Shown: one piece after another, positions 12,334-59,840 of the stretch
Layout of the letters: each line of letters begins with the position of its first letter
Position numbering within the stretch: position 1 is the stretch's first letter
Assembly: GCA_902619815.1 (NCBI GenBank)
Contig: CACNGH010000005.1
Span: 15,640-79,639 of the forward strand
Direction: 5' to 3'
DNA length: 64,000 nucleotides
Source of the DNA: an uncultured Pelagibacteraceae bacterium
GTDB taxonomy: Bacteria > Pseudomonadota > Alphaproteobacteria > Pelagibacterales > Pelagibacteraceae
The notes under the pieces: generated by a model
The model's database searches: none
What the model saw: the letters and a program-made list of their open reading frames with translations, nothing else
Told to the model about the DNA's origin: nothing
Position numbers and translations under genes: made by a program

Positions 12334-12378
12334 TTAGCTATTGAATTCTATTTCTACAAATGTTTTATATTCACCTTT

Positions 12379-16035: not shown

Positions 16036-16037
16036 TT

Positions 16038-16892: not shown

Positions 16893-16928
16893 TTTACCTA
16901 AATATACTTTTCATATATAGAACTTAAG

Positions 16929-34213: not shown

Positions 34214-34214
34214 T

Positions 34215-35540
34215 TTAACAGTCTAAAGTATTCTGTCTTTCCCATTTTGTTACAGGTTTTGACTTATCAAATTTTTCTTTATTATCAAATTCTTTAATTT
34301 CTGAGTTTCTAAGTTTAATATAACTATTAATTGTTTCTTCTCCAAAAGCTTCACTCATCTCATTGTTATTTTTCAAAAGTTCTAGAGAATCTTGGAGTTC
34401 GTTTGGTAATTTAGGTAAGTTAGGATATTTCTCATAATCTGTGTACATATTGCAAGTCAGAGGCTCTCCTGGATCAATTTTATTTTTTAATCCATAAAGA
34501 CCAGCAGCTAATATACTTGCTTGTAATAAATATGGATTTGCAGATCCATCCATCAATCTCAGTTCAAATCTACCAGGATCTGGAATTCTTATCATATGTG
34601 TCCTGTTATTGCCTGTATAAGATATGCTACTTGGCGACCACGATGCTCCAGATTTTGTTGGTGGTGCATTAATTCTTCTATAGCTGTTAATTGTTGGATT
34701 AAAGAAAGCAGACAAAGATGAAGCATTTTTAATTACACCTCCTAAGAAATTATAAGCCATTTTACTAAGTCCAAGTTTGTCTGATTTATCTAAAAATTTA
34801 TTTTTCTTTTTATCCCAAACTGATATGTGGGCATGACAACCATTACCTGTTAAGTTTTCAAATGGTTTAGGCATAAATGTTGCTCTTAAGCCATGTTTTT
34901 CTGCTAATGTTTTAACCATATACTTAAAAAAAGTATGTCTATCAGCTGTTTTTAAACAATCATCATAGTCCCAATTCATCTCAAATTGCCCATTGGCGTC
35001 TTCATGATCATTTTGATATGGACCCCATCCCATCTCAATCATGCAATCACAAATTTCTTTTATTAAGTCGTATCTACGCATTAGCGCTGATTGATCATAA
35101 CAAGGTTTAGATTGAGTATCTCTTGGATCGGCAATTGAATTTCCATCTGGTGAGATTAAAAAGTATTCACACTCTACACCTGATTTCATTGTTAAATTTT
35201 GTTTTTTTAATTTCTTAATTTGATTTTTTAACATTATTCTTGGAGAGGCTTCTACAGGCTTACCATTCATCCATAAGTCCGATGCAAGCCATCCGACTTC
35301 TTTATTCCAAGGCAATTGAATTAAACTATCTGGATCAGGAATACCAAACATATCACTATCTGCAGGAGACATATCTAGCCAAGCTGCAAAACCAGCAAAC
35401 CCTGCTCCAGCAGTTTGCATTTCTTTAATAGCATGCGCCGGAACTAGTTTTGATCTAAGAACACCAAAAAGATCAACAAAGCTTATTAAGAAATATTTTA
35501 TTTTTTTTTGTTTTGCTATTTTGAACAAGTTTTTAGCCAT
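34215..35540 (-). CDS. gmaS: Gamma-glutamylmethylamide synthetase (type III glutamate-ammonia ligase, GlnT)
   Basis: RSKLVP, GAGFAGFA, KPCYDQ, YQNDHEDANGQFEMN, SGASWSP, NNRTHMIR; inside methylamine cluster. Confidence 0.88.
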   Translation of the reverse strand: MAKNLFKIAKQKKIKYFLISFVDLFGVLRSKLVPAHAIKEMQTAGAGFAGFAAWLDMSPADSDMFGIPDPDSLIQLPWNKEVGWLASDLWMNGKPVEASPRIMLKNQIKKLKKQNLTMKSGVECEYFLISPDGNSIADPRDTQSKPCYDQSALMRRYDLIKEICDCMIEMGWGPYQNDHEDANGQFEMNWDYDDCLKTADRHTFFKYMVKTLAEKHGLRATFMPKPFENLTGNGCHAHISVWDKKKNKFLDKSDKLGLSKMAYNFLGGVIKNASSLSAFFNPTINSYRRINAPPTKSGASWSPSSISYTGNNRTHMIRIPDPGRFELRLMDGSANPYLLQASILAAGLYGLKNKIDPGEPLTCNMYTDYEKYPNLPKLPNELQDSLELLKNNNEMSEAFGEETINSYIKLRNSEIKEFDNKEKFDKSKPVTKWERQNTLDC

Positions 35541-35557
35541 TGCCTAGGCTATCACAA

Positions 35558-35769: not shown

Positions 35770-36000
35770 TTACCAATCGGTAATATTGCTTTTATGATCG
35801 TTTGCACCGTGTCTTTTTCTAGATAATCTATCAAGTTCTTCTCTCTCAGATTTATCTGTGATGACACTCCATCCAATCCACACAGCAATTAACAATAGGA
35901 CTAGTATAAATTCACTAGATCCTGCTCCAGGATAAACCGATCCAGCAACCTCTTCTGCAGGTTTATTTAGATGATCTATCCAGTTTGATACTGTAGCCAT
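35770..36000 (-). CDS. 76-aa single-TM protein co-transcribed with Amt
   Basis: SD AAGGAG overlapping the amt stop region; VYPGAGSSE then TM FILVLLLIAVWIGW. Confidence 0.75.
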   Translation of the reverse strand: MATVSNWIDHLNKPAEEVAGSVYPGAGSSEFILVLLLIAVWIGWSVITDKSEREELDRLSRKRHGANDHKSNITDW

Positions 36001-36011
36001 ATTTTTCTCCT

Positions 36012-37412
36012 TTACCTGGTTGCTGATGAAACTGCTTTTTCGTCATCTTTTGCAGTCTCCATCATTTCATAGTCTAGTCCTGCTATCTCAACTTCACGTG
36101 GGATTCTTAATTTACCCATTCCGTTAAGAACTCTAGCAATTATATATCCTGGTATAAGCCCTAGAACAAAGAACATTATTATTGCTCCTATAAATTGACC
36201 CAATGGATTAATTGTTGCGTAAGTTGTTCCATCAAACATAGCTCCTACGCTATATCCAGATGAAGGATAACCATTCAAAACAAATCCACAGATTACAAGT
36301 CCAATAAAACCAGCATAACCATGTACAGCTACTGCTCCAACCGCATCATCAATTTTGAACTTTCGCTCAACCCAATAATGAAGTTTGTAGGAAATCACAA
36401 CTCCAATCATACCAATAATTAAAGCTTGAATTGGATGATATAAGTCATTTCCAGCTGAGGCACATATTATACCTGCTAGTCCACTTGAGTAAGTCCAGAA
36501 AGGATCACCTTTTGCAATAACATATCCAGCTAATAATCCACCTGATAATGACATTAAGAAGTTCATAGTTATTCCACTTAATGTAGTAGGTGTTAAGTAA
36601 ATGTTTGTTGCTGTCCAGAATGTTACTCCTTCCATTCCATACTCAGGTCCAAGGTCATATATCGGAACATTACATGCCGCATAAAATCCCCAAAAACCAG
36701 TATAAATTAAAAATAATCCAATAGTAACTAGCCAAGGATTTCTTGGTCCTATATTTCTTGGTTCACCACTTGATGAAAATTTTCCAATTCTTGGTCCTAA
36801 AACCATAAGAACACCTAGTGCAAATCCACCTGCTATTGCGTGAATAACACCTGATGCATACGCATCGTGATATCCTAAAATTTTAAGCATCCATCCATCA
36901 AAGTGCCATCCCCATGAAGCATCTATCGACCAAAAAACAGATCCAATCGCAATTGCTAAAACTCCAAATGCAAAAGTTGTTATCCTTTCAATAATAGCCC
37001 CAGAAACGATAGAAGCAGCAGTCCATGAAAATAATAAGAACGCCGCCCAAAAAACACCCATTATATGATCGTTAAGATTAACTGCCATAAGAGCATTAGT
37101 TGGATTAGCAAGATCATTTCCTCCAAATCCACCACTTAAAACGAGTCCGGTGCTTTCTGTCATTATTGATGGAGCTAGTCCAGGTCCTGTTGGAAAAGCC
37201 CAATAAATCCACCAACCAAATAAAAACCAAGTTACTGTTACCAAAGGTATAAGCATTGTGTTTTTCATTAAGGTATGTTGGTGGTGTTTGTATCTTGACG
37301 CTCCAACTTCATACATACAGAAACCGACGTGAATTAAAAACATCAGTACCACTGTTACCCAGTAGTAAAACTCTGTAAATATAGTAGTAAGAGCACCTAA
37401 CTGATCAGTCAT
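36012..37412 (-). CDS. amt: Amt/Rh family transporter, divergent (putative methylammonium transporter)
   Basis: About 11 TM; IVSGAIIER, twin His (GVIHAIAG, AVAVHG), LGPRIG, KIDDAVGA. Confidence 0.88.
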   Translation of the reverse strand: MTDQLGALTTIFTEFYYWVTVVLMFLIHVGFCMYEVGASRYKHHQHTLMKNTMLIPLVTVTWFLFGWWIYWAFPTGPGLAPSIMTESTGLVLSGGFGGNDLANPTNALMAVNLNDHIMGVFWAAFLLFSWTAASIVSGAIIERITTFAFGVLAIAIGSVFWSIDASWGWHFDGWMLKILGYHDAYASGVIHAIAGGFALGVLMVLGPRIGKFSSSGEPRNIGPRNPWLVTIGLFLIYTGFWGFYAACNVPIYDLGPEYGMEGVTFWTATNIYLTPTTLSGITMNFLMSLSGGLLAGYVIAKGDPFWTYSSGLAGIICASAGNDLYHPIQALIIGMIGVVISYKLHYWVERKFKIDDAVGAVAVHGYAGFIGLVICGFVLNGYPSSGYSVGAMFDGTTYATINPLGQFIGAIIMFFVLGLIPGYIIARVLNGMGKLRIPREVEIAGLDYEMMETAKDDEKAVSSATR

Positions 37413-37439
37413 TTTTTTACCCCCATATTTGTTTAAGAA

Positions 37440-37468
37440 ATCTTATGAAATTTTTAAGGGTGTGACAA
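37440..37468 (-). promoter_or_regulatory. Putative sigma70 promoter of amt
   Basis: TTGTCA - 17 nt - TAAGAT on minus strand; GGGGG SD downstream. Confidence 0.5.
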
Positions 37469-37537
37469 ACAAAACAAATCTAAAAAACCTACTGTGGACA
37501 ATAGATTTACAAATAAAATCAACTCTTGATTGTGATA

Positions 37538-37951
37538 TTAAAACTTTAAATAGGCTTTTTTCAAATCAACAAGTGGATGTTTAGGAGACATTTGAAATTT
37601 AACTAACAGTTCTCTAGCTATCATATCTCTGTCTTGTTGATTGTTAGGTAGCTTAATTGATTTTGGAATAGTAACCCACCCGTTAGCATTTCTACAAAAT
37701 ACTGCTGGTCTATCTTCTTCGTAACCCATATGAACATCTTCTAGCCAATTAAGATCATCCCATCCCATAGCTTCAATATACTTCTTTAAAAATGGAGTTA
37801 TCTTTTTGTAATCAGGAAGTAAGTTAACATCATATCTATAACCAATATGTTGACCAATTAATTTTTCTCTTGCAGTTTCCTTAAAAGTACTAAGCTTGTC
37901 TTTTTTTGGTTTACCTTTAGATTTTATTTTTTTTGTTTTTTTCTTTGGCAT
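37538..37951 (-). CDS. Hypothetical protein (137 aa) in mgs operon
   Basis: ATG 37951, 7 nt after mgsC-like stop; Lys-rich N-terminus; DDLNWLEDVHMGYEEDRPAVF core. Confidence 0.75.
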   Translation of the reverse strand: MPKKKTKKIKSKGKPKKDKLSTFKETAREKLIGQHIGYRYDVNLLPDYKKITPFLKKYIEAMGWDDLNWLEDVHMGYEEDRPAVFCRNANGWVTIPKSIKLPNNQQDRDMIARELLVKFQMSPKHPLVDLKKAYLKF

Positions 37952-37958
37952 AATTAAT

Positions 37959-39380
37959 TTATATTTTGTGATAATTATCAACTCCAACAGTATAATTAGT
38001 TCCAGCTAAAGGAACTTTTGCTAAAGCAGATGCCTCAGATGTTAATGCCGCTAAATCTTCAGGCTCTAGTGAGTGGATATTTGTTTTACCACAAGCTCTA
38101 GCTAGTAATTGAGCTTCTAAAGTCATTGAATGCAAATAATTATAAACTCTTAAAGCAGCATCATCAGGATTTAATCTTGCTCTTAATTTTGGATCTTGCG
38201 TAGCAACTCCTACTGGGCAACGACCTGTGTGACAGTGGTAGCATTCTCCAGCTTTTACACCCATTTCTTTTTCAAAATCAGCTTCAGGAATATCTTTGTT
38301 ACAGTTTAGCGCAATCATTGATCCTGTACCAATTGCAATTGCATCAGCTCCTAATGCTAGAGCTTTTGCCATATCAGCACCATCTCTTACTCCACCTGCA
38401 TAAATTAGAGTTACTTTCCCAGTTTTACCAACATCATCAATCGCTCTTCTGGCCTCTCTAATAGCAGCAATTCCAGGTATTCCAGTATTTGCAGCAGCAA
38501 TGTGTGGTCCTGCTCCAGTTGATCCTTCCATTCCATCTAGATAAATTGAGTCAGGATCACATTTTGCAGCCATACGCACATCATCATATACTTTTGATGC
38601 TCCTAATTTTAATTGAATTGGAACTTTATTTTTAGTTAATTGTCTTAACTCTTCAACCTTCAAAGCTAAATCATCAGGACCTAACCAGTCGGGGTGTCTA
38701 GCAGGTGATCTTTGGTCAATACCTGAAGGTAGTGATCTCATTTCAGCAACTTGGTCAGTTACTTTTTGTCCCATAAGGTGGCCGCCCATTCCAACTTTTT
38801 GACCTTGTCCAATAAAAACTTCTATTCCATCAGCTAACTGAGCATGATGAGGATTAAAACCATATCTTGATTGAATACATTGATAGTACCATTTTTCAGA
38901 ATATCTTCTTTCATCCGGAATCATTCCACCTTCACCTGAACAAGTAGCGCTGCCAGCCATAGTTGCTCCTCTTGCTAAAGCAGTTTTAGCTTCATAAGAT
39001 AATGCACCAAAACTCATCCCAGTAATATAAACTGGAATATCTAATTCAATTGGGTTTTCACATCTTGGACCAATTACTGTTTTGGTCTCACATTTTTCTC
39101 TATAACCTTCAATTACAAATCTTGTTAATGTTCCTGGTAAGAAAACTAAATCATCAAATGTTGGAATTTTTTTCATTAATGCCATTCCACGCATTCTGTA
39201 TCTTCCTAACTGTGCTTTAATATGTATGTCGTCGATTACTTCAGGAGTGAAGATAGCGTTATGCCCTAATAAACTTTTATTTCTTTTTCCATCTTCGTGT
39301 GCATGAACGTCAGCTTTTCCACCAACTCCTTTTCCATTTGATTTTACTTTTCCATTTTTTTTACTTTTTTTCTTAGGCAT
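37959..39380 (-). CDS. mgsC: FMN-binding glutamate synthase-like subunit (N-methylglutamate synthase C / GlxD)
   Basis: GMSFGALS, SGEGG, GQGQKVGMGG, SPARHPD, GGVRDGAD, CHTGRCPVGVATQ. Confidence 0.8.
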   Translation of the reverse strand: MPKKKSKKNGKVKSNGKGVGGKADVHAHEDGKRNKSLLGHNAIFTPEVIDDIHIKAQLGRYRMRGMALMKKIPTFDDLVFLPGTLTRFVIEGYREKCETKTVIGPRCENPIELDIPVYITGMSFGALSYEAKTALARGATMAGSATCSGEGGMIPDERRYSEKWYYQCIQSRYGFNPHHAQLADGIEVFIGQGQKVGMGGHLMGQKVTDQVAEMRSLPSGIDQRSPARHPDWLGPDDLALKVEELRQLTKNKVPIQLKLGASKVYDDVRMAAKCDPDSIYLDGMEGSTGAGPHIAAANTGIPGIAAIREARRAIDDVGKTGKVTLIYAGGVRDGADMAKALALGADAIAIGTGSMIALNCNKDIPEADFEKEMGVKAGECYHCHTGRCPVGVATQDPKLRARLNPDDAALRVYNYLHSMTLEAQLLARACGKTNIHSLEPEDLAALTSEASALAKVPLAGTNYTVGVDNYHKI

Positions 39381-40234
39381 TAAATTGCTCCCTTCTTCTC
39401 TGTAGGTTCTAAATTATCATAATTCCAAAGTTTTTTACCAGCTACAATTTTTTTCATTTTGCTAACGTCAAAATCTTCACCTATTTCTGCAACCTTTAGT
39501 TTTCGTCTTAACCAATCTTGATCACTAGAAGTTAATTCTGCATCCACAGCATCACTACCATATGACCCAATTTCTCCACCTACGAAAATTGTCCCATCGT
39601 ACATAGAGTCTCCTAAATTTATTCCAACATCTCCAAGGATAATTATTCTTCCTCTTTGCATCATAAAACCAGTAAATGCTCCAGCATCTCCACCGATAAT
39701 AATCGTTCCACCTTTCATATCGATACCAGTTCTTGCACCAACACTACCTTTGCAAATTAAATCTCCACCTCTTATTGCGGCTCCAAAACAAGAACCTGCA
39801 TTTTTTTCAATAACAACTTTTCCAGCCATTAAATTTTCTGCACATGACCAACCAACTCTGCCACTGATTCTAACTATTGGACCATCACAAGATCCCATTC
39901 CAAAATAACCTAAACTTCCTTCAAAAATTAAATTTAGTTTATTCAAAATACCAACACCTAAACTATGTTTTCCTTGTGGATTTTTAATTACTATTGTCCC
40001 ATATCCTTGGCTCATTAAGTTGTCTATTTCTTTATTAGCTTCAGGTGCTGACATATTCATTACGTCTAAGTCTGTTCTTTTATTGAAGTCAACATCGTAA
40101 GTTCCAAAATAATAAAAGTTTTCAGCTTCATCAGGGTTAAAAAACTTTTGCTGAGTTCTTCCTGTTAATACCTCTGTATGCATTCCCATTGATTGGGCTT
40201 TGGACTTTTTCTCGCTAGTTTTTATATTTGCCAT
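39380..40234 (-). CDS. mgsB: GXGXG-domain subunit (N-methylglutamate synthase B / GlxC)
   Basis: Beta-helix repeats GSLGYF, AENLMAG, GIDMKGG, LGDSMYDG. Confidence 0.8.
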   Translation of the reverse strand: MANIKTSEKKSKAQSMGMHTEVLTGRTQQKFFNPDEAENFYYFGTYDVDFNKRTDLDVMNMSAPEANKEIDNLMSQGYGTIVIKNPQGKHSLGVGILNKLNLIFEGSLGYFGMGSCDGPIVRISGRVGWSCAENLMAGKVVIEKNAGSCFGAAIRGGDLICKGSVGARTGIDMKGGTIIIGGDAGAFTGFMMQRGRIIILGDVGINLGDSMYDGTIFVGGEIGSYGSDAVDAELTSSDQDWLRRKLKVAEIGEDFDVSKMKKIVAGKKLWNYDNLEPTEKKGAI

Positions 40235-41166
40235 ACTTTTACCTCTCCATCAAAAGGATCATAAGTATCAATTTCGTGTGGTAACACAGATCTGATCGCA
40301 ATCTCTTCTGATCCCATTGCAACTAAATCATCCGATTCATAAAGCACCAAAGGTTTTGCTGCCATTGTATCTTTTGCCATACCTAAAGAGTCTTTTGTTG
40401 CTACAAAATAAGTAAAAACACCATCAAGCCCAGATAGAGAGTCTTTCATTCCTTCTTCAAGACTTGCTCCCTCTCTCATTTTTTGTGCTATATAAACCGC
40501 TATCAATTCTGAGTCACATTCTGACATAAATCTCATACCTTTATTTTCCAAAACTCTTCTGTTGTTCCAATAATTTGTAAGCTGTCCATTATGAACAACT
40601 GACACATCACTAAAAGGATAACCCCAGAAAGGGTGGGCTGATTTTATATCTACACCAGACTCAGTTGCCATTCTTGCATGACCTATAGCGTGTGTTCCAA
40701 CAAGTTTATCTAAACTATATCTGTCACACACCATTTTTGCGTTCCCTAGATCTTTGATTACCTCTAAAGATTTTCCCATAGATAATATTTCTACTCCAGG
40801 AATACTTTCAATTCTTTGAGAAAAATCTAATAAATCTTTAGTTTCATAATCAACTTCATATCTTAATGAGTAGGGAAGAGTTCTTTCCTCTTTGATAATT
40901 TTTGCACCCATCTCAGATAGAGTCTGATCAACGATTTTTTTTCTTTCATCGTAGACCGAAACATCTTCCATAACTGAAGAACTACCTTCTCCAACATTTT
41001 CTCCAACCTTAAAACGCATGATAAAATTTTTACCATCCGTATCTCCGTATAAAGCATAGCCCGTTGAATCTTCACCTCTATGTTTTAATGCTTGAAGCAT
41101 ACCCTGAAGCTCACTTCCAACATTTGAAGATTTTCCTCTATGAATTAAACCTGCAATACCACACAT
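40222..41166 (-). CDS. mgsA: Class II glutamine amidotransferase subunit (N-methylglutamate synthase A / GlxB)
   Basis: N-terminal MCGI, HRGEDS, GHARMATES, HNGQL, CDSE. Confidence 0.8.
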   Translation of the reverse strand: MCGIAGLIHRGKSSNVGSELQGMLQALKHRGEDSTGYALYGDTDGKNFIMRFKVGENVGEGSSSVMEDVSVYDERKKIVDQTLSEMGAKIIKEERTLPYSLRYEVDYETKDLLDFSQRIESIPGVEILSMGKSLEVIKDLGNAKMVCDRYSLDKLVGTHAIGHARMATESGVDIKSAHPFWGYPFSDVSVVHNGQLTNYWNNRRVLENKGMRFMSECDSELIAVYIAQKMREGASLEEGMKDSLSGLDGVFTYFVATKDSLGMAKDTMAAKPLVLYESDDLVAMGSEEIAIRSVLPHEIDTYDPFDGEVKVWQI

Positions 41167-41194
41167 ATTTTATACCCTTCTTTTATTTTAAGAC

Positions 41195-42664
41195 CTATGG
41201 AAGACAATCTAGATAAGTATCCAGATCCCATTGAGTTGTTGCACCTAAAAATCTTTCCCATTCATCATTTTTATACCAATGGAAAATTTTATACATTTCA
41301 TCAGGCATAGCAGATTGTATTACTTTATCTTCTGCCAATCTGTCCAAAGCTTCACCTAAACTTAAAGGTAATTTTTTAACATCCTTTCCTGCTTTTTGAG
41401 CCTCATATATATTTCTAGACTCAGGCTTACCTGGATCTATGTTGTTTGTTAGTCCATCATCAAATGCTTTTAACAATGATGCTCCCATTAAATAAGGATT
41501 ATGCATAGAGTCTACCGATCGGTACTCAAATCTACCAGGAGCAGATACTCTTAAACCACAAGTTCTGTTTTGATAACCCCAGTCAGCATAAACAGGAGCC
41601 CAGAAACCTTGATCCCATAATCTTCTATAAGAATTAACTGTGGATGATCCAATAGCAGTTAAAGCAGGAAGGTGTTTCATAACACCACCAATAGATTTTA
41701 ATCCAATCTTACCTGGTAACTGAACATCTTTAGTGTCTGGCATGAATGTATTTGTTCCACCTTCAACATAACTAAACACTTCATCCATTCCAGGAAGAGA
41801 TTTATGACCCAATTTGTTTACTTTGTCTTTTCCGCCTGTCCATAAAGACATATTGGTATGACATCCACTTGCAGAAACACCCATAAAAGGTTTTGTCATA
41901 AAGCAAGCAATTAAATTAAACTCTCTAGCAACTTGTGCACAAATTTGTCTGTAAGTTGATAATCTGTCTGCATTTCTTAAAACATCATCAAACATCCAGT
42001 TTAATTCTAACTGACCTGGAGCATCTTCATGGTCTCCTTGAATCATATCAAAACCCATAGCTCTTGCGTATTCCATTACCCTCATAAACACTGGTCTTAA
42101 TGACTCGAATTGGTCAATATGATAACAATATGGTTTCGAGAAACCCTTTCCAGTAGGAGTTCCATCCTCATTTCTTGTTAACCACATCATCTCAGGCTCT
42201 GTTCCAACTCTTAACTGATAACCATGCTTTTTCTTAAATTCCTTAGCTATAATTCTTAAGTTACCCCTACAATCAGACGTAAGATGACCACCTGGATTTT
42301 CTCTCTCTTCTCTGTTTCTAAAACATGTTACAAAAACTCTCGCAACTTTTTTATCCCAAGGTAACTGACAAAAAGTTTCAGGATCTGGTATTCCAACAAG
42401 TTCTTTAGCTTCAGGTCCATAACCTATGTAGTTATTGTGACGATCCAAGAAAAGGTTTGCTGTTGCACCATAAACTAATTGAAAACCTTTTTCGCAAGTT
42501 CTTTCCCAATGGTCTGCAGGTATTCCTTTACCCACAACTCTTCCAGTAACAGATATGAACTGAAAAAAAATATAATCAATTTTAAGTTCATTAATTTTAG
42601 CTCTAACCTGTTTTACTAGTTTATCTCTTCCAGGTTGGTTAACATGTTTTTCTAAATCAGTCAT
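41195..42664 (-). CDS. Glutamine synthetase-like gamma-glutamyl:amine ligase (second paralog)
   Basis: GTEPEM, DHEDAPGQLELN, FMTKP, SGCHTN, NSYRRL, NRTCGLR, RFEYR, NPYL. Confidence 0.85.
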   Translation of the reverse strand: MTDLEKHVNQPGRDKLVKQVRAKINELKIDYIFFQFISVTGRVVGKGIPADHWERTCEKGFQLVYGATANLFLDRHNNYIGYGPEAKELVGIPDPETFCQLPWDKKVARVFVTCFRNREERENPGGHLTSDCRGNLRIIAKEFKKKHGYQLRVGTEPEMMWLTRNEDGTPTGKGFSKPYCYHIDQFESLRPVFMRVMEYARAMGFDMIQGDHEDAPGQLELNWMFDDVLRNADRLSTYRQICAQVAREFNLIACFMTKPFMGVSASGCHTNMSLWTGGKDKVNKLGHKSLPGMDEVFSYVEGGTNTFMPDTKDVQLPGKIGLKSIGGVMKHLPALTAIGSSTVNSYRRLWDQGFWAPVYADWGYQNRTCGLRVSAPGRFEYRSVDSMHNPYLMGASLLKAFDDGLTNNIDPGKPESRNIYEAQKAGKDVKKLPLSLGEALDRLAEDKVIQSAMPDEMYKIFHWYKNDEWERFLGATTQWDLDTYLDCLP

Positions 42665-42695
42665 TTTTCCCCTTAATGAATTATAAATTTTATAA

Positions 42696-42724
42696 AGCGT
42701 AGCTGAAAAATTTATTTGTGTCTA
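42696..42724 (-). promoter_or_regulatory. Putative internal promoter of GS-like/mgs operon
   Basis: TAGACA - 17 nt - TACGCT on minus strand; AAGGGG SD downstream. Confidence 0.4.
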
Positions 42725-42734
42725 GGCTTGAAGT

Positions 42735-44060
42735 TTAACTCCAAGGGAACGGACTGTTCGAAGTAGGGTGAAGTTCACCTTTCTCGTAACGGTTGAATCT
42801 AAACGGTTTCAATAAATCACTTTCAGTACCCAGAATTTCTTTTGCAACAAGTTCACCTACACCAATCATTTTATATCCATGATTAGCATCAGCAATCATA
42901 TAAACATTTTCTAAAAATCTATCAAAGATAGGAAATGAATCTGGTGTCATGCATCCAAGACCACCTGATGGTCCTTTTCTATATAAACCAGATTTTCCCT
43001 CAAATCTTTTTTGACAATGTGCTAGAGCTGAACACCACATATCATTAAATGCTTCTGTTGTTTGGTATTCAGGAGACTCCACTCCGTACGGGTCAACATT
43101 AACTTGATCAAAATGTTTATCAACTATGTAAGGAGATGTCCCGCCCTGTACACCTAATCCTTCAATGTCTGGCTTGTAATAAATTCCCCAAATTTTATCG
43201 GTAATTAGTTTTTTTGTTGAGTCAGAATATAATGGAGCTGTAGAGTCGACATGAATCACAGGGGGTTGTTTGCCATTATTCATTTTTAAAAAATCTGGCT
43301 CAACACCTAGAACACCTTCTTGCAGCATCCAGTATTTCCACATGTCTGTTTTATGAAACTTACCATCTTTATCTTTAATATTTGCAGTCTTTGGAAGTTC
43401 TAACATGTTCCAGAAATCTCTTACCCAAGGACCTGCACCAACTACTACTTGTTCGCATTCAATAGTACCTTTATCAGTTTCTACACCGGTTACAGCTTTA
43501 CTGTTACTTCCTCTTTTAAATCCAGTTACTTTAACTTCTTTAAATACGTTCACTCCGTTTGATGTTGATTTTTTTTCAAGCGCTTTTATAGAGTCCATAT
43601 TAAATGCGTAACCACCTTTTTTTTCATGCAAAATAGAAGTTATGCCTTTAGCTTGCCAATCATCGAACATACCTTTCATATAATTCGTACAATCTTTTTC
43701 ACCTTCTATAAATTCTGAATCATAACCAATTGCTTTTTGCTGCTCATAAATTGAAGCTACGTCTTCATGCATAACTTCAGGCGAAATTTGTAAATATCCA
43801 ACTGCATTATACTTGAAAGCATCTGGATCACTTTCCCATATAGAAACTGAATGTGCCATTAATTCTCTCATTGCTGGCTGAAAATAATTATTTCTTACAA
43901 CACCACATGCAATGCCACTTGCACCTGCAGCAGTATCTTTTTTTTCTAGAACAACTATGTCTCCAGGATTTTTATATGTTTCTGATAGTTTCCATGCGGT
44001 ACTTAAACCGTGTATTCCACCACCTATAATGACTACTTTTGCTTTTGTGGGTAATGACAT
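42735..44060 (-). CDS. FAD-dependent oxidoreductase, DAO/sarcosine oxidase-beta-like
   Basis: IIGGGIHG, GASGIACG, GAGPW, TPDSFP, NHGYKM. Confidence 0.85.
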   Translation of the reverse strand: MSLPTKAKVVIIGGGIHGLSTAWKLSETYKNPGDIVVLEKKDTAAGASGIACGVVRNNYFQPAMRELMAHSVSIWESDPDAFKYNAVGYLQISPEVMHEDVASIYEQQKAIGYDSEFIEGEKDCTNYMKGMFDDWQAKGITSILHEKKGGYAFNMDSIKALEKKSTSNGVNVFKEVKVTGFKRGSNSKAVTGVETDKGTIECEQVVVGAGPWVRDFWNMLELPKTANIKDKDGKFHKTDMWKYWMLQEGVLGVEPDFLKMNNGKQPPVIHVDSTAPLYSDSTKKLITDKIWGIYYKPDIEGLGVQGGTSPYIVDKHFDQVNVDPYGVESPEYQTTEAFNDMWCSALAHCQKRFEGKSGLYRKGPSGGLGCMTPDSFPIFDRFLENVYMIADANHGYKMIGVGELVAKEILGTESDLLKPFRFNRYEKGELHPTSNSPFPWS

Positions 44061-44162
44061 TATGAAACCTTATTTTTTACAAAGTAGAATTAATATAATT
44101 ATTTTTAGAACTAAAAAGTATATATATAAAATATACACTTTAAACTTAACAGAAATATTTGC

Positions 44163-44513
44163 TTAATAGCTTATATTTTTAAGAGTAGTCAAATATTCAT
44201 TAAACTCTTTGATAAAAGAGTCACTTGGCTTAATATTTTTAATTCTTTGATCTGTTGAAGTTTTTTCTAATAAGAAGAATCCTTTTTCGCAAGCTTCATT
44301 AATGATTAAAGCCGATTTTGGCCTCGATGTTTTGAATAGTTTAGTTTTTAGTTGTTCAACAGATAATTTTTTATTTTCTTTGTAGGCAGACATTACTAAT
44401 AACATCATATGATAATGAGAAGGTGATTTTCTAAAAAAATAGTTACTTGAGGTATGAGATTGTCTCATTTGATCTTCCCAGAAATTTAATAGAGTTTTTT
44501 TGTCTTTTGGCAT
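44163..44513 (-). CDS. Small winged-helix (MarR-like) protein
   Basis: HTH-like SRPKSALIINEACEKGF and wing STDQRIKNIKP (DxR). Confidence 0.55.
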   Translation of the reverse strand: MPKDKKTLLNFWEDQMRQSHTSSNYFFRKSPSHYHMMLLVMSAYKENKKLSVEQLKTKLFKTSRPKSALIINEACEKGFFLLEKTSTDQRIKNIKPSDSFIKEFNEYLTTLKNISY

Positions 44514-44518
44514 TTAAT

Positions 44519-46864
44519 TTATGATCTTACTCTAGACTTAGTTGGGTCATAAAAAGGAAAGACAACTACTTTGGCAGCTATTCTTTTTTGATGACCATCA
44601 ATTTTACCAACTTCAACCTCAGTCCCAATCTCTGAATACTGCATATCAATTCTACACAATGCTATATTTTTATTTAAAGTTGATGATAGGCATCCACTTG
44701 TAACCACACCAACTTGAGATCTTCCAATATGAACACAGTCACCATGACCAGCAATTTCTTTACCAGCTAATTCCAACCCAACAAGTTTTTTTTGAGGGTT
44801 ATTTTTTCTTTTTATTAATTCTTCTTTACCAATAAAATCCTCTTCTTTTGTTTTCAAAGGAACAGCAAAACCAATTCCTGCTTCAAAAGGATCTTGTTGA
44901 CCATCAAATTCATTACCAAATAAAATTAATCCTGCTTCAATTCTAAGTTTGTCTAAAGCTCCAAATCCTGCAGGAATCAAACCATCTTCTTTTCCTGCTT
45001 CCATTAATTTATCCCAGACTTCAGGAGCATGTTTAGGGTGACACCAAATTTCATAACCTAACTCACCAGTATAACCAGTTCTAGAAACAATCAATGGTAT
45101 TCCTTGCAACTCTTCTATTCTACAAATGCTAAATCTAAACCAACCAAGTTCATCTATGGAAGGTTGAGTTGGAGGTGTAAAAATTATCTTTTTTAAAATT
45201 TCCCGACTTTTTGGTCCTTGTAATGAAACGTTACTTATTTGGTCTGTTGAATTTTTAATGTTTGCATTAAAATTTTTCTTTTTTGCAATTTCTTTTAACC
45301 ATTCGCCGCCATATTCATCTCCACAAATCCATCTAAAACCAGTCTCACTTAATCGTAAAAGAGTACCATCATCAAACATCATTCCATTTTCGTAGCACAT
45401 CGCAGAATACACAACTTGACCTACCGATAATTTTTTAATGTTTCTTGTAAGTGTATAATTTAATAACTCTTCTGCATCAGGGCCAATAATTTCAAATTTT
45501 CTTAACGAGGATAAGTCAATTAAAACCGCATCATTTCTGCAAGCGTTGTACTCATTAACAAGCCCATGTTTTGTGTAATCATTTGGAAGCCAAAAACCTC
45601 TGGCATCTATAAAATTTCTAGTTAGCCTGGATGTTCTTTCATAAAAGCCAGAATTTCTTGTGAGTTTTTTTTCAGAGTCTGTTTTCATCCTAAATGCAAA
45701 TGATTTAGTAAATTCTTTTTTTTTGTCATATGTTCTAACAAAAATATTAGTTGGATTCCATGAATTACAAGGATCTATATCACTTGGACACGCTGTTGTG
45801 CCAATAGTTAAATCTTTTAACGCTCTAAACATGACATAATCTCCAGGACGAGAATAAGATTCATCGGAAATGACTGAGTTTAAACCACCTTCAGAGGTAT
45901 TAAAAAATAAATTGATTGCGTGCCAGCCTTTTTGTTTTTGAAGACCATACTTAGACATACTTTCTGTAAGATTATCTGAGCAATTTGCATGGCCAAAATA
46001 ACCAGCATCCTCATAGTACTTTGAAGTACAGGCAAGATTAAACGTATCATGTTTACCAACGGTATCTCTAATTACTTCTACCAAAGGCTCATGGTCAGTA
46101 TCATAAAATTTAGAAAATAATCCTGGACCTGGAAATGTATTTCCCATGAAAGTTCTAGTTGTTTGCCAATCTAAACCTTTCTCAATTCCTTTTTCTAATT
46201 TCTTTGTGTCAAATGCCACAAAGTCTGAACATTGTCTTCCAGTTGGACTTATCACTTGAATGTAGTCACCTTCTTTAACTTCATAAGATATACTACTTGC
46301 TTTTTTTATATTCTCCTCGTGCGATGGTTCAAAGACAGGGTTTGGAATAACATTTAATTCTTTGTAATCAATAATATTTGCTCTTTTAATATAAATAATT
46401 AAATCTGTAGGAGGATTTTGCTTTGTAACATCCATGTCTTGTCCAGGAGCTGCAAATATTGCAAAACAATTATCTTTAGACTTTAATTTAATTTTTTCGC
46501 CAATTTGACTATCAATATCAAATACGATTGAGGATTTTGAATTTGAAATATTTAAATTTAGTTTTTTAAGTTGATAATTGGTTGCTAGAATACTCTCATC
46601 TTTTTTACTTAAGATATCTCTAATAAAATTTTTATTATTGTTACTTTTAAGGTTTAAAATACCTACATCTGATTTTCCATCTTTATTGAAACATATAATT
46701 TCACAAATTTGATTTCCATCGTTATTAATAATCTCTATTTCATCATCAGGAAAAATATAAAAAGCAGTAAGGCCACCACCATTTACAATATGTCTTTCAA
46801 CTCCTGGTGGTAAAATATTTAGTCCTGGATATTTTATTTCTTTACTAGTTCCTAACATCTTCAA
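44519..46864 (-). CDS. tdm: Trimethylamine N-oxide demethylase (DUF1989 + GcvT domains)
   Basis: GRQCSDF, HDTFNLAC...GHANC, TACPSDID; GcvT part DLSSLRK, SRTGYTGELGYE, LRIEAG; next to TMAO transporter and tmm. Start is TTG 46864 or ATG 46858. Confidence 0.88.
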   Translation of the reverse strand: MKMLGTSKEIKYPGLNILPPGVERHIVNGGGLTAFYIFPDDEIEIINNDGNQICEIICFNKDGKSDVGILNLKSNNNKNFIRDILSKKDESILATNYQLKKLNLNISNSKSSIVFDIDSQIGEKIKLKSKDNCFAIFAAPGQDMDVTKQNPPTDLIIYIKRANIIDYKELNVIPNPVFEPSHEENIKKASSISYEVKEGDYIQVISPTGRQCSDFVAFDTKKLEKGIEKGLDWQTTRTFMGNTFPGPGLFSKFYDTDHEPLVEVIRDTVGKHDTFNLACTSKYYEDAGYFGHANCSDNLTESMSKYGLQKQKGWHAINLFFNTSEGGLNSVISDESYSRPGDYVMFRALKDLTIGTTACPSDIDPCNSWNPTNIFVRTYDKKKEFTKSFAFRMKTDSEKKLTRNSGFYERTSRLTRNFIDARGFWLPNDYTKHGLVNEYNACRNDAVLIDLSSLRKFEIIGPDAEELLNYTLTRNIKKLSVGQVVYSAMCYENGMMFDDGTLLRLSETGFRWICGDEYGGEWLKEIAKKKNFNANIKNSTDQISNVSLQGPKSREILKKIIFTPPTQPSIDELGWFRFSICRIEELQGIPLIVSRTGYTGELGYEIWCHPKHAPEVWDKLMEAGKEDGLIPAGFGALDKLRIEAGLILFGNEFDGQQDPFEAGIGFAVPLKTKEEDFIGKEELIKRKNNPQKKLVGLELAGKEIAGHGDCVHIGRSQVGVVTSGCLSSTLNKNIALCRIDMQYSEIGTEVEVGKIDGHQKRIAAKVVVFPFYDPTKSRVRS

Positions 46865-46909
46865 TGTTTTATTATAATTTTATTGTGACCATATTATACT
46901 GAAAACGAG

Positions 46910-46938
46910 TTGACTATACCTTTAAATCAGAACATACT
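46910..46938 (+). promoter_or_regulatory. Putative sigma70 promoter of tmoX
   Basis: TTGACT (46910-15) - 17 nt - CATACT (46933-38). Confidence 0.55.
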
Positions 46939-46971
46939 TTGACATTAATATTAATAATCGAGGGGAAAAAA

Positions 46972-47919
46972 ATGAAAAAAATAATATCATTATTATCTGC
47001 TCTTATAATTTCTGTAGTTAGTTTTGCAGGAATTTCTAATGCTGCAGATAGCAAAAAACCCATCGTAATCCCAACTCATAACTGGTCAAGCCAAATTGTA
47101 ATGGCGTATGTTATTGGTGGAATTTTCGAAAGCATGGGTAACAATGTTAAATATGTAAATGCTGACTCACAAGCAGTTTACGAGTCAATCAGAATTGGAG
47201 ATGTAACTATATCTCACGAAGTATGGGAATCTGCATTTGGTAAATCATTTACAACAGCTCTAGACAAAGGTGGCTTACTTGATTGGGGAGACCATGAAGC
47301 AAGAACACTTGAAGATATGGGATATCCTAACTGGGTTACAGATAAAGGATTATGCCCTGGTCTTCCAGACTGGACAGCTTTAAAAAATCCTGACTGTGCT
47401 AAAAACTTCACAACACCTGACTCACCAAATGGAAAAGGAAGAATGTTGGAAGGTCCACAAACTTGGCATGGTGATTTAATACCTCAAAGGGTTGACGCTT
47501 TAGGTTTAGGTGACCTTTGGTGGGTAAAATTTGCTGGAAGTGCAGATGCGCTTTGGGCTGAATTAGCAGCTGCTGAAAAAGAAGGAAGAGGTACAATAAT
47601 TTTCAATTGGACACCAAACTTTACTGATGGTGCTGGTTTTACATTTATTGACTTTCCTCCATACACCGCAGGTTGCAGACCAGAAGATGGTGGAGATGGA
47701 AAATGCGGTTCTCCAGATGGTTATCTGAAAAAAGCAGTTAATGAGGATTTTCCAAAAACTCATCCAAATGCAGCTAAAGCATTTAAAAAAATGTCATTTT
47801 CTACAAGTCAAATTGGAGCAATGGCAGCTTTAGTTGATTTAGATAAGATGACTCATGAAGACGCAGCTAAAAAATGGTTAGCTGATAATAAGTCAGTTTG
47901 GCAAGCTTTTACTAAATAG
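46972..47919 (+). CDS. tmoX: TMAO ABC transporter substrate-binding protein (ProX/OpuAC family)
   Basis: GAGGGG SD, signal peptide, HNWSSQ, HEVWE, CPGLPDW, FNWTPNF; flanked by tdm and tmm. Confidence 0.82.
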   Translation: MKKIISLLSALIISVVSFAGISNAADSKKPIVIPTHNWSSQIVMAYVIGGIFESMGNNVKYVNADSQAVYESIRIGDVTISHEVWESAFGKSFTTALDKGGLLDWGDHEARTLEDMGYPNWVTDKGLCPGLPDWTALKNPDCAKNFTTPDSPNGKGRMLEGPQTWHGDLIPQRVDALGLGDLWWVKFAGSADALWAELAAAEKEGRGTIIFNWTPNFTDGAGFTFIDFPPYTAGCRPEDGGDGKCGSPDGYLKKAVNEDFPKTHPNAAKAFKKMSFSTSQIGAMAALVDLDKMTHEDAAKKWLADNKSVWQAFTK

Positions 47920-47938
47920 GGATAAAAGTTAAATTTAG

Positions 47939-47973
47939 AGTCTCCCCCACATTGTTGGGGGGGATTTTTTTTT
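47939..47973 (+). terminator. Intrinsic terminator after tmoX
   Basis: AGTCTCCCCCA-CATTGT-TGGGGGGGATT stem followed by T-tract. Confidence 0.8.
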
Positions 47974-47998
47974 ATTTGATTTTGTGTAAAATAAATTC

Positions 47999-48376
47999 AT
48001 GAAAAAAATTCCCATATTATTACTTCTAACTTTTTTTATCGTTACTGCAGTTTTTGCCCGAAGCACCGGATGTAAAGAGGGAAATTGTGAAAATGGATAT
48101 GGAAAATGGGTTTATACAGATAAAACCACTTATGAAGGTGAGTGGGTTGCAACAAAAAAGCAAGGGCAGGGAGTAGAAACTTGGCCTAATGGATATATCT
48201 ATAAAGGTGAATTTGAAAATAGCGTATGGAGTGGGCAGGGAATTTTAACATTCCCAGATGGCTCTACATACGATGGAGAGTGGGCTAATGGTTTCATGAA
48301 TGGTCAGGGAACATTTACTTGGGCAGATGGAAAACAAAAATCAGGAATTTGGAAAAACGGAAAATTACAGGAATAA
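47999..48376 (+). CDS. Exported MORN-repeat protein
   Basis: Signal peptide, CKEGNCENGYG, repeats YEGEW...QGQG, YKGEF...GQG, YDGEW...GQG. Confidence 0.85.
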   Translation: MKKIPILLLLTFFIVTAVFARSTGCKEGNCENGYGKWVYTDKTTYEGEWVATKKQGQGVETWPNGYIYKGEFENSVWSGQGILTFPDGSTYDGEWANGFMNGQGTFTWADGKQKSGIWKNGKLQE

Positions 48377-48927
48377 TGTCTCAACAAAATTATTTTACTA
48401 AATTAAAAGAATTACCAGAGTCTGTTAGACAGTTTGGGGGATTAGTAATTATTACATTAATTATAATCTTATCTTTTTTTATCTTAAATAATATTTTTGG
48501 TGAAGGTGAAGATTTAGTTAAAAGGATGAAAATAGAAGAGGAAAGAATTGCAGAAGAGAGAAAATTAAATGAATTAATTTCAACTCTGCCATCTGGAATT
48601 TTGGTTACTTTTGATGGAACTGATCATTATAGATTATCTGACGAGGTTTATGAAAAAGTCTGCAAAGCTACAAAACTTATCCCTCAAAGAGCAATAATGG
48701 GAGCTAATTTCCTCAATTTTAGAGCACATGAAATTTATACAATTAATGGCAATAAAATTGATGAGACATTTGTTGAGTGGGACGAAGAAAAAAATAAATG
48801 TTTTGCAGGTTTTACAGTAAGTGGAAATAATGTTGGGGTTGATGAAAAAATCACAGTAAGTGGGGAGGCATTAAGTTTTTTGAGCACTGGCATTGATACT
48901 AGAATTTATTACATCAAAAATTTTTAA
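48376..48927 (+). CDS. Membrane-anchored hypothetical protein
   Basis: ATG overlaps MORN stop (TAATG); one TM, coiled segment, two Cys in the soluble domain. Confidence 0.7.
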   Translation: MSQQNYFTKLKELPESVRQFGGLVIITLIIILSFFILNNIFGEGEDLVKRMKIEEERIAEERKLNELISTLPSGILVTFDGTDHYRLSDEVYEKVCKATKLIPQRAIMGANFLNFRAHEIYTINGNKIDETFVEWDEEKNKCFAGFTVSGNNVGVDEKITVSGEALSFLSTGIDTRIYYIKNF

Positions 48928-48993
48928 TTAAGGAGAAACAATTATTATATAGATATTAATTCAATTAATTTTCGTATAACTTATTAATAATTT

Positions 48994-50025
48994 ATGTCTG
49001 AAGCAGTTATTAAATGTGAGTCAGTTTATAAAATTTTTGGAGAAAATGCCGAAAAAATGCTTCAAAAAGCCAATGGAAACGTTGACGCAAAAACTTTTCA
49101 AGAAAATGGATGTATAGTCGGAGTTAACAATGCTTCTTTTGAAGTAGCAAAAGGAGAAATGTTGGTTGTTATGGGTTTATCTGGATCAGGCAAATCAACA
49201 TTACTTAGATGTATTTCAAGATTGACAGATGCAACAGGTGGAAAAATTTTTATAGAGGGTCAAGATTTATTAGAGTTAAACAACAAAGAATTAATTGATC
49301 TTAGAAGAAATAAAATGGGAATGGTTTTTCAGAGCTTTGCACTGTTACCACACAAAACTGTTGTAGAAAATATAGCATTTCCACTGCAAATTAAGGGAAT
49401 TAATACTGACGATAGCATTAGTAAGGCAATGGATATGGTTAAGTTAGTTGGACTAGATGGAAGAGAAAATTATTTTCCAAGAGAACTTTCAGGCGGACAA
49501 CAACAAAGAGTTGGTATTGCAAGATCCTTAGCTGTTGAACCAGATATTTGGTTTTTAGATGAGCCTTTTTCAGCATTAGATCCTTTGATTCGAAAAGAAA
49601 TGCAGGATGAATTTTTAAGACTTCAAGACAAACTTCAAAAAACTATAATGTTTATTACTCACGATTTTGATGAGGCTTTAAAACTAGCAGACCGAATAGC
49701 AATTATGAAGGATGGTATAATTGAACAATTAGATACACCTGCCAAAATAGTTTTAAATCCCGCAACTGAATATGTTAGGAAATTTACTGAAGAAGTTCCT
49801 AGAGAAAAGGTTTTATTAATTGAAGATGTAATGGAACAATCCACTGGTGATAATTTAGGAGATTTAAGAGTTTCAAAACATGAGATTATAGAAAACGTTG
49901 CTGAAAAAATTCTAACTCAAGATAAAACTGTAGGAGTAATAGATAAGAATAATAAAGTTATAGGCTCTATCAACCCCACAAAGATAATCAATACAGTCTT
50001 TGGTGGAAGGAAAAATGGAAATTAA
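48994..50025 (+). CDS. ProV-like ABC ATPase of TMAO transporter
   Basis: GLSGSGKS, FQSFALLPH, LSGGQQQR, DEPFSALDPLIR, degenerate CBS-like tail. Confidence 0.88.
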   Translation: MSEAVIKCESVYKIFGENAEKMLQKANGNVDAKTFQENGCIVGVNNASFEVAKGEMLVVMGLSGSGKSTLLRCISRLTDATGGKIFIEGQDLLELNNKELIDLRRNKMGMVFQSFALLPHKTVVENIAFPLQIKGINTDDSISKAMDMVKLVGLDGRENYFPRELSGGQQQRVGIARSLAVEPDIWFLDEPFSALDPLIRKEMQDEFLRLQDKLQKTIMFITHDFDEALKLADRIAIMKDGIIEQLDTPAKIVLNPATEYVRKFTEEVPREKVLLIEDVMEQSTGDNLGDLRVSKHEIIENVAEKILTQDKTVGVIDKNNKVIGSINPTKIINTVFGGRKNGN

Positions 50026-50028
50026 CCA

Positions 50029-59570: not shown

Positions 59571-59840
59571 ATGCTTCATATTAAATGTCCTTATTGTGGG
59601 ATGAGATCGCAAAATGAATTTTCTTACGGTGGAGATGCAAGCGTAAAAAGACCTGAACTTAACAAAGAAATCTCTGATCAAGAATGGGATAGTTTTGTAT
59701 ACAATCGAAAAAGTTTAAGAGGTAAGCACTTAGAGTTGTGGCAGCATCTATCTGGATGTAGGCAATGGATTAAGGTAGAGAGAGATACTGCTACTCACGA
59801 AATATTTAATACACATAAAGCAGACGAGGAAATTTCTTAA
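59571..59840 (+). CDS. soxD: Sarcosine oxidase delta subunit / MgdB
   Basis: CPYCG, EFSYGG, HLSGCRQW, RDTATH. Confidence 0.92.
   Translation: MLHIKCPYCGMRSQNEFSYGGDASVKRPELNKEISDQEWDSFVYNRKSLRGKHLELWQHLSGCRQWIKVERDTATHEIFNTHKADEEIS

Follow-up and report, generated by a model that had tools for sequence, protein, structure and literature searches.

The window, a 64,000-nucleotide stretch (~32% G+C) of contig CACNGH010000005.1 from an uncultured Pelagibacteraceae bacterium whose assembly spans 1.13 Mb in 25 contigs at 87% completeness, carries a row of minus-strand genes that run in one direction from tdm, the gene for the trimethylamine N-oxide (TMAO) demethylase that makes dimethylamine (DMA). 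Within this row lie a DAO-family flavoprotein and a glutamine synthetase (GS)-like ligase, here called GS2, which an earlier model-made reading of the same letters (the original prediction) had treated as a free-standing pair that could fill a gap in DMA breakdown. We find that the two are the first genes of a conserved six-gene module, which also takes in the window's only mgsABC set and a 137-amino-acid (aa) protein and usually stands beside an Amt transporter, in the order [regulator]–DAO–GS2–MgsA2–MgsB2–MgsC2–137-aa protein. The module is a strong candidate, and the best one, for DMA breakdown in SAR11 bacteria by a putative mechanism independent of the DMA monooxygenase Dmm.

44519–46864, minus strand: tdm, TMAO demethylase, makes DMA; heads the co-directional row (NF053776, 1079 bits; DUF1989, GCV_T and GCV_T_C domains)
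44163–44513, minus strand: 116-aa open reading frame (ORF) between tdm and the flavoprotein; matches neither Pfam nor NCBIfam
42735–44060, minus strand: DAO-family flavoprotein, 441 aa, SAR11_1304 family (PF01266, 117 bits; TIGR01373, 81 bits against a cut-off of 529)
41195–42664, minus strand: GS2, 489-aa putative GmaS-like gamma-glutamyl-amine ligase, SAR11_1305 family (Gln-synt_C, 265 bits; TIGR03105, 296 bits)
40222–41166, minus strand: MgsA2, Ntn (Cys2) amidotransferase subunit of the paralogous synthase (GATase_6/7; MCGIAG N terminus kept)
39380–40234, minus strand: MgsB2, GXGXG subunit (PF01493)
37959–39380, minus strand: MgsC2, FMN/Glu_synthase subunit (PF01645, 298 bits)
37538–37951, minus strand: conserved 137-aa protein; its start is the ATG at residue 13 of the listed ORF (37538–37987)
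36012–37412, minus strand: Amt-family transporter, recurrent neighbour of the module (PF00909)
35541–35557, no strand: site without canonical mgsA1B1C1, 2.9 kb in related SAR11 (alignment to locus L104)
34215–35540, minus strand: canonical GmaS (TIGR03105, 620 bits, cut-off 470; 572 bits to RhGmaS 7cql)
46939–52182: TmoXWV
53155–54486: Tmm (NF058570, 740 bits)
58314–63420: SoxBDAG-like genes

A diaminopropionate-ammonia-lyase-like gene closes the row behind gmaS, and tmoXWV, tmm and the soxBDAG-like genes are situated to its right. Both ORFs of the original prediction are present where it placed them, on the minus strand and with DAO and Gln-synt_C Pfam matches, and the context it described (Tmm, Tdm, GmaS and SoxBDAG-like genes) is borne out. 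The same arrangement is on record for 'Ca. Pelagibacter ubique' HTCC1062: SAR11_1303 (tdm), SAR11_1304 ('monomeric sarcosine oxidase'), SAR11_1305 (glnT), SAR11_1306–1308 (glx-like set), SAR11_1310 (amt), SAR11_1313–1315 (glxBCD), SAR11_1316 (glnT) and SAR11_1317 (ygeX) (PMC3160333, PMC3870248). By its place between the tdm homologue SAR11_1303 and glnT SAR11_1305, SAR11_1304 is the same gene as the window's flavoprotein; SAR11_1313–1315 are the canonical mgsABC and SAR11_1316 is GmaS.

Homologues of GS2 with 69–80% identity occur in unrelated, far larger genomes, where they are always followed by a GATase protein of ~311 aa, a GXGXG protein of ~280 aa, an FMN protein of ~447 aa and a protein of ~130 aa. 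Gene order is unvarying across SAR11 loci wherever a contig spans the module, and a relative of the flavoprotein with no more than 37% identity still stands in the order GntR–DAO–GS2–GATase–GXGXG–FMN–small protein. In every genome checked, GS2 is accompanied by MgsA2B2C2 and by the small protein, at 65–83% identity across families, and Amt adjoins them in SAR11 as well as in unrelated genomes. These core genes are invariant, and it is they that take the place of Dmm in genomes. At the module's head, the 116-aa ORF keeps its place in the SAR11 loci that span that stretch, and it may be a small regulator, since other taxa put a GntR/FCD regulator there.

The three synthase subunits were assigned by the original prediction to the ordinary methylamine pathway; they form instead a distinct paralogous set tied to GS2. 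MgsA2B2C2 has the architecture of N-methylglutamate (NMG) synthase and keeps the N-terminal Cys2 nucleophile in MgsA2, which is 34–36% identical to canonical MgsA1; MgsB2 is 60–67% identical across taxa, and MgsC2 is 76–80% identical across taxa against 52–54% to canonical MgsC1. No curated family model covers MgsABC. An Fe–S motif in MgsC2 (C-x2-C-x4-C-P) was considered as a distinguishing feature and dropped, as canonical MgsC1 has the same motif. The 137-aa protein comes after mgsC2 in every locus examined, with 69 invariant columns and 64–92% identity over the alignment (64–68% across distant taxa). It has no family in Pfam (E up to 10) or in the protein atlas, and its AlphaFold 2 (AF2) model, with a mean predicted local distance difference test score (pLDDT) of 57.9, is too poor for a fold search. 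The score of a predicted complex with MgsB2 and MgsC2 was not specific, as a control with MgsC2 replaced was also high.

We examined the distribution of these genes in 401 evenly drawn Alphaproteobacteria, 33 of which carry Tdm, calling GS2 at 800 bits or more, MgsC2 at 760 or more, the flavoprotein orthologue at 540 or more and DmmC at 146 or more. Among the 33 Tdm-bearing genomes, GS2 was found in 24, always with MgsC2 (24/24), the flavoprotein in 19 and DmmC in 7; a single genome (G353) held both GS2 and DmmC. GS2 occurs in 23 of the 26 Tdm-bearing genomes that lack DmmC, and the three exceptions are a 75%-complete genome, one whose Tdm match falls below the cut-off, and a 94%-complete genome with a weak match to PF11927, the family of DmmC and the haem-dependent oxidative N-demethylase (HODM). 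A second draw, at the level of the phylum, brought in another 18 genomes with Tdm; they belong to four families, and two fall outside the class. GS2 is in none of these 18, and DmmC scored at least 222 bits in all ten that were tested (all eight genera), mostly 2–20 kb from tdm. Across the 43 Tdm-bearing genomes scored for both GS2 and DmmC, 23 have GS2 only, 16 Dmm only, one both and three neither (Fisher p = 5.6e-8). Because relatedness inflates such tests, the fairer figure gives each family one vote: 15 GS2-only, 7 Dmm-only, one both and none with neither (p = 3e-5).

The module also goes with tdm, a co-occurrence that the original prediction had named as a check on its proposal: GS2 is present in 24 of the 33 Tdm-bearing genomes (73%) against 13 of the 368 without Tdm (3.5%), a roughly 20-fold enrichment. 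In SAR11, G064, G355 and L001 the module is adjacent to tdm, and several unrelated lineages show it linked with tdm, tmm or tmoXWV. The 13 GS2 genomes without Tdm have no DmmC, and nine of them carry the flavoprotein directly beside GS2. GmaS scores above the TIGR03105 cut-off in 27 of the 37 GS2-bearing genomes and is found in both the GS2 and the Dmm groups; since it coexists with GS2, the module is not a mere local version of the methylamine pathway.

Known enzymes for DMA are missing from the host assembly. The original prediction had seen neither a DMA monooxygenase nor a dehydrogenase in the window, and the same holds for the 87%-complete assembly: PF11927 has no match there in a search that finds DmmC in other genomes, flanked by Fer2/FAD/DmmA-like reductase genes, and PF00724, the trimethylamine (TMA)/DMA dehydrogenase fold, has none in a search whose control was positive in 13 of 14 genomes. 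All SAR11 are reported to lack dmmDABC, a gap read as a 'metabolic bottleneck' that feeds DMA-derived aerosols (PMC5520151). HTCC1062 nevertheless grows on TMAO as its sole nitrogen source, and 'an isoenzyme of DmmDABC' in SAR11 has been called for (PMC8918994). Published work treats SAR11_1304 as a possible amine oxidase whose function is 'uncertain' (PMC3870248, PMC5520151); our literature searches turned up no paper characterizing GS2, the small protein or the second set of Mgs subunits.

Judged by family scores and aligned residues, GS2 is a GmaS-like gamma-glutamyl-amine ligase and neither a glutamine synthetase nor a GmaS orthologue. It reaches 295.8 bits on the GmaS model TIGR03105, below the cut-off of 469.6, against 620.2 bits for the window's other GS-like protein, to which it is 31% identical. 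It also falls short of the models for GlnA (TIGR00653, 236 bits, cut-off 429) and PuuA (NF045547, 209.9 bits, cut-off 650), and its scores against solved GS and GmaS structures are about equally weak (162–186 bits). At the ammonium site, Trp takes the place of the flap Glu (GFWAP), and QLVYGAT stands in the Asp50′ region; the motifs picked out by the original prediction are indeed in the translations, as GFQLVYGATANLF and DQGFWAP in GS2 and as AGFAGFAAW and GASWSP in GmaS. RhGmaS numbering was carried onto GS2 through the alignment of GmaS with 7cql, with residue roles taken from PMC7948447. By that alignment GS2 and its orthologues keep the catalytic Asp177, Glu186 and Arg312 and the amine-pocket Tyr147, Gln175, Glu179, Asn188 and Lys30′, and GS2 has the flap Trp300 that replaces the flap Glu of GS. 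Because all of these RhGmaS catalytic and pocket residues are kept, GS2 is most readily seen as a gamma-glutamyl-amine ligase, and the original prediction was right to separate an amine-glutamylating enzyme from GmaS; which amine it takes, the sequence cannot say. GS2 departs from GmaS in the Asp50′ loop, the surroundings of the flap, an insert of ~27 aa before the NSYRR motif and an N-terminal extension, and is ~50 aa longer. RhGmaS itself is poor on DMA, with a Km of 16 mM against 27 µM for monomethylamine (MMA) (PMC7948447), and a dedicated ligase therefore makes sense.

The flavoprotein belongs to the Pfam DAO family (PF01266, 117.3 bits, gathering threshold 27.9), a match that covers only residues 8–220, and stays far below the cut-offs for SoxB/MgdA beta (TIGR01373, 81.5 bits against 529) and monomeric sarcosine oxidase (MSOX; TIGR01377, 37 bits against 480). 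Its neighbours are the 116-aa ORF and GS2, and the position of the Cys that links the flavin in MSOX varies, C369 being Ala in several family members. The AF2 model (pLDDT 83.6) has SoxB-beta, MSOX, dimethylglycine dehydrogenase (DMGDH) and dimethylglycine oxidase (DMGO) as its nearest folds, with further matches to proline dehydrogenase beta, glycine oxidase, MTOX and NikD (TM 0.6–0.73), all of which act on amino acids. Fold and family scores thus agree with the lone SoxB/MSOX-like enzyme of the original prediction. In the Sox family the triad Arg52/Tyr55/Lys348 salt-bridges the substrate carboxylate (PMC12582975), and it is matched in the flavoprotein by R56 and Y59, both nearly invariant, and K397, invariant across the family alignment; of these, R56 and K397 pair with the Arg and Lys of SoxB, an equivalence drawn from sequence alignment and fold and not from a superposed ligand. 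As the carboxylate triad is kept, an N-methylated amino acid formed downstream of the Mgs-like step is favoured as substrate over free DMA or a gamma-glutamyl amide nitrogen, and the flavoprotein more likely acts on an N-methylated glutamate than on free DMA.

Presence of the flavoprotein in 27 of the 37 GS2-bearing genomes marks it as a frequent accessory member, a dispensable one, which most plausibly demethylates an N-methylated glutamate. It is found in 17 of the 23 Tdm-bearing, Dmm-lacking module genomes and missing from six that retain the rest of the module, among them the complete genome G064; it also occurs in two Dmm-bearing genomes, G344 and G353. Enzymes of the SoxB/MgdA type were present in ten of ten module genomes tested. 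A related-locus search with the flavoprotein returned 80 Pelagibacteraceae loci at 85–100% identity and no other taxa, which marks the window as SAR11 DNA.

Most of the SAR11 loci examined have lost the canonical counterpart of the module's synthase. Compared with the same-genus locus L104, in which 10930–12951 aligns with window 37600–35558 and 15869–18069 with window 35540–33345, canonical mgsA1B1C1 (2.9 kb) is cleanly absent between 35558 and 35540. Among 62 SAR11 loci that show what comes after amt, 45 lead directly to gmaS, which is intact in all 45, and 17 carry mgsA1B1C1. MgsC2 is the only MgsC-like gene in the host genome besides GltB; because there is no other Mgs set, MgsA2B2C2 must also process the gamma-glutamylmethylamide made by canonical GmaS. 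That streamlined SAR11 keeps both GmaS and GS2, although most loci have lost canonical mgsABC, argues that the two ligases are not redundant.

We propose, with a probability of roughly 0.45, that the module carries DMA, its putative substrate, whether released by Tdm or imported, into a glutamate-bound form without a DMA monooxygenase. As to the gap in DMA breakdown, the complementarity of module and Dmm among Tdm-bearing genomes speaks for the role that the original prediction gave to its pair, and the pair as a functional unit falls away. A complete Dmm-independent pathway, running through gamma-glutamyl-dimethylamide and N,N-dimethylglutamate (metabolites not known in biology) with the SAR11_1304-type flavoprotein as an N,N-dimethylglutamate demethylase, is a more doubtful extension of this proposal. 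In such a pathway, every step of which we infer, GS2 would use ATP to join DMA to glutamate, giving gamma-glutamyl-dimethylamide. MgsA2, as a Cys-Ntn amidotransferase, would free the amine inside the MgsA2B2C2 complex, and MgsC2 (FMN) would fix it on the 2-oxoglutarate skeleton to give N,N-dimethylglutamate. The flavoprotein, or a SoxBDAG/MgdABCD-type enzyme where it is absent, would take one methyl group off to leave NMG, and MgdABCD would remove the second to yield glutamate. The chemistry would parallel the methylamine route one methyl group higher and is the most economical that we can draw.

Several observations weigh against DMA as the substrate. We know of no NMG-synthase-like enzyme that fixes a secondary amine reductively. 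GS2 and GmaS share their amine-pocket residues, and the GS2 pocket shows no visible widening that would admit a secondary amine. Of the 37 module-bearing genomes, 13 lack Tdm, and the module therefore does not depend on TMAO demethylation; 10 lack a GmaS of the TIGR03105 type, which fits a module that handles MMA itself. The genomes behind the complementarity are related, come from ~23 families and are all Alphaproteobacteria except two, such that lineage or lifestyle could add to the pattern, and weak PF11927 matches (51–59 bits) in the 1.4-Mb genomes G030 and G339 were not counted as Dmm. In nitrogen-limited HTCC1062, SAR11_1304 was the second most induced protein, whereas SAR11_1305 and SAR11_1308 were not induced (PMC3870248), a difference that suggests separate control of the flavoprotein.

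Much of this would sit comfortably with a second MMA module, which is the main rival explanation and in our estimate an unlikely one. GS2 would then be a gamma-glutamylmethylamide synthetase, MgsA2B2C2 an NMG synthase and the flavoprotein a single-subunit NMG oxidase or dehydrogenase, together a self-contained route from MMA to glutamate, for example one of high affinity or under different regulation. Tdm-bearing bacteria without Dmm would excrete DMA, as Lidbury et al. reportedly proposed. The original prediction had offered a second NMG module as its alternative, a description that captures the resemblance and, as a function, still competes with ours. The GmaS-identical pocket, the 13 module genomes without Tdm and the 10 without canonical GmaS all suit MMA, as does the duty of the sole Mgs set, here and in most SAR11 loci examined, to handle the GmaS product. 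The carboxylate triad fits NMG, some flavoprotein members are labelled 'methylglutamate dehydrogenase subunit A' by JGI, and the 'metabolic bottleneck' view (PMC5520151) points the same way. What MMA leaves unexplained is the mutual exclusion of module and Dmm in genomes with Tdm, canonical GmaS being present in both groups, and the retention of two MMA ligases by streamlined SAR11. A further NMG oxidase would be redundant beside the SoxB/MgdA-type enzymes of all ten module genomes tested, and HTCC1062 grows on TMAO as its sole nitrogen source without Dmm (PMC8918994).

The exclusion of Dmm also bears on the idea that the module serves some other small amine imported by Amt, such as ethylamine or ethanolamine, has nothing to do with TMAO and neighbours tdm only through island clustering. 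GS-like ligases are known for many amines, RhGmaS accepts ethylamine with a Km of 58 µM (PMC7948447), 13 genomes carry the module without Tdm, and the adjacency of Amt points only to a small cationic amine. The ~20-fold enrichment in Tdm-bearing genomes (73% against 3.5%), the complementarity with Dmm and the fact that several unrelated lineages link the module with tdm, tmm or tmoXWV make this improbable. The least supported reading, and to us a very improbable one, has the flavoprotein alone oxidizing free DMA to methylamine and formaldehyde, with GS2 and the Mgs2 proteins then taking the methylamine. Its position directly downstream of tdm, its strong induction under nitrogen limitation independently of GS2 (PMC3870248), its presence in 17 of the 23 Tdm-bearing, Dmm-lacking module genomes and its earlier mention as a 'general amine oxidase' candidate (PMC5520151) would be accounted for. 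Direct oxidation of DMA sits badly, however, with the six such genomes that do without the flavoprotein and have the rest of the module, including the complete G064, and with the two Dmm genomes that have it, in one of which (G344) it stands beside a Rieske oxygenase and reductase and not among amine genes. The retained triad, which in the Sox family binds the substrate carboxylate (PMC12582975), and the fact that all structural neighbours act on amino acids tell further against it.

The module is a sister, that is a diverged copy, of the NMG pathway, as far as its families and residues tell. It shares families and gene order with the GmaS, MgsABC and MgdABCD route of Methylocella silvestris, Methyloversatilis universalis and Ruegeria pomeroyi, and retains both the catalytic residues of GmaS and the Cys motif of MgsC. 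It differs in having an additional 137-aa protein and a lone flavoprotein in place of the four-subunit dehydrogenase, in coexisting with the canonical genes in most genomes, and in its phyletic pattern, complementary to Dmm. DmmDABC and the haem-dependent oxidative N-demethylase of PF11927 hold, in the TMA–TMAO–DMA–MMA pathway, the position that we propose for the module, and they too occur in Tdm-bearing genomes near tdm; their proteins (haem-PAS, reductase and GcvT-like subunits) are unrelated to it and almost never co-occur with it. The flavoprotein matches the sarcosine oxidase family (SoxB/MgdA, MSOX, dimethylglycine oxidase and dehydrogenase) in fold (TM 0.68–0.73), FAD motif and Arg/Tyr/Lys residues, but at less than 20% identity, with inserts in the substrate domain, and without alpha, gamma and delta partners or a folate-binding domain. 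The Puu pathway of Escherichia coli pairs a GS-like gamma-glutamylating ligase, PuuA, with a DAO-family oxidase, PuuB. Like the module it thus joins a ligase to a DAO flavoprotein; unlike the module it has no glutamate-synthase-like subunits, PuuB oxidizes the distal primary amine of gamma-glutamylputrescine, and the score of GS2 on the PuuA model is far under the cut-off.

Many marine bacteria, SAR11 among them, produce DMA from TMAO without having the only known aerobic DMA-degrading enzyme. The module supplies specific, clonable candidates: a ligase, a three-subunit synthase with its small protein, and a flavoprotein. If the complete pathway holds, the 'missing DMA step' would be closed for SAR11 and for most of the remaining marine bacteria with Tdm, overturning the view that their metabolism stops at DMA, which is then vented to the atmosphere. 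Gene markers for marine DMA turnover would have to include the module, far more abundant in the ocean than dmm, and estimates of DMA flux and of the nitrogen available to SAR11 would change.

A promoter and terminator scan of window 37400–47000 gave counts that did not exceed those in shuffled sequence. A promoter-like site, a consensus match only, lies at 42709–42680 in the spacer between the flavoprotein and GS2 genes, and no terminator-like site separates the two. Metatranscriptome contigs from four of four seawater RNA libraries cover all of 37500–46900, which records presence in RNA libraries with DNA carry-over possible; the depth of these contigs cannot rank genes. Contigs from two studies (runs X1 and X2) start at 42698 inside the 70-nucleotide spacer, a weak hint of a transcript boundary or internal promoter, and a contig from a third run bridges it.

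Relatives of the flavoprotein turn up in other settings. In G344, which has Dmm and lacks GS2, a 60%-identical orthologue (locus L095, contig G344:C23, 9271–13068) adjoins genes for an oxygenase of the Rieske ring-hydroxylating type, a Fer2/DmmA-like_N reductase and a regulator of the LysR family, a setting that suggests a role of the flavoprotein family in other N-demethylation routes too. The 37%-identical relative at 8001–9365 of L090 lacks a recorded Pfam DAO match, and its dinucleotide-binding motif, GSAVIHSVPTAW, is degenerate; decay of the copy or errors in long reads may be the cause. Protein P0007 (ENA, 666 aa) fuses the flavoprotein (94% identity) to part of Gln-synt_C and may be a read-through or gene-call artefact at the DAO–GS2 junction. 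Two distant relatives (P0249 and P0253) sit on short contigs with no informative neighbours.

Second GS2-like paralogues, 55–60% identical to GS2, occur in genomes that already have it (G084:C104, G340:C5, G210:C1:2285933, G342:C1:351243 and G048:C1:2636227). A third GS-like type (~237 bits on TIGR03105) stands beside a canonical-type MgsC in genomes without a TIGR03105 GmaS (G253:C1:1644831 and G258:C1:192988), and GmaS function probably extends beyond a single clade.

Elsewhere in the window, a 125-aa MORN-repeat protein and a 202-aa ORF without a family lie between tmoX and tmoV (47999–48927). A 76-aa short ORF comes after Amt (window 35770–37412), and ORFs of 55–74 aa follow the module-linked Amt in two unrelated genomes. 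The diaminopropionate-ammonia-lyase-like gene behind canonical gmaS (window 33080–35540) is ygeX, a PLP gene (NF006058, 372 bits), and the gmaS–ygeX pairing is kept in nearly all SAR11 loci that reach past gmaS.

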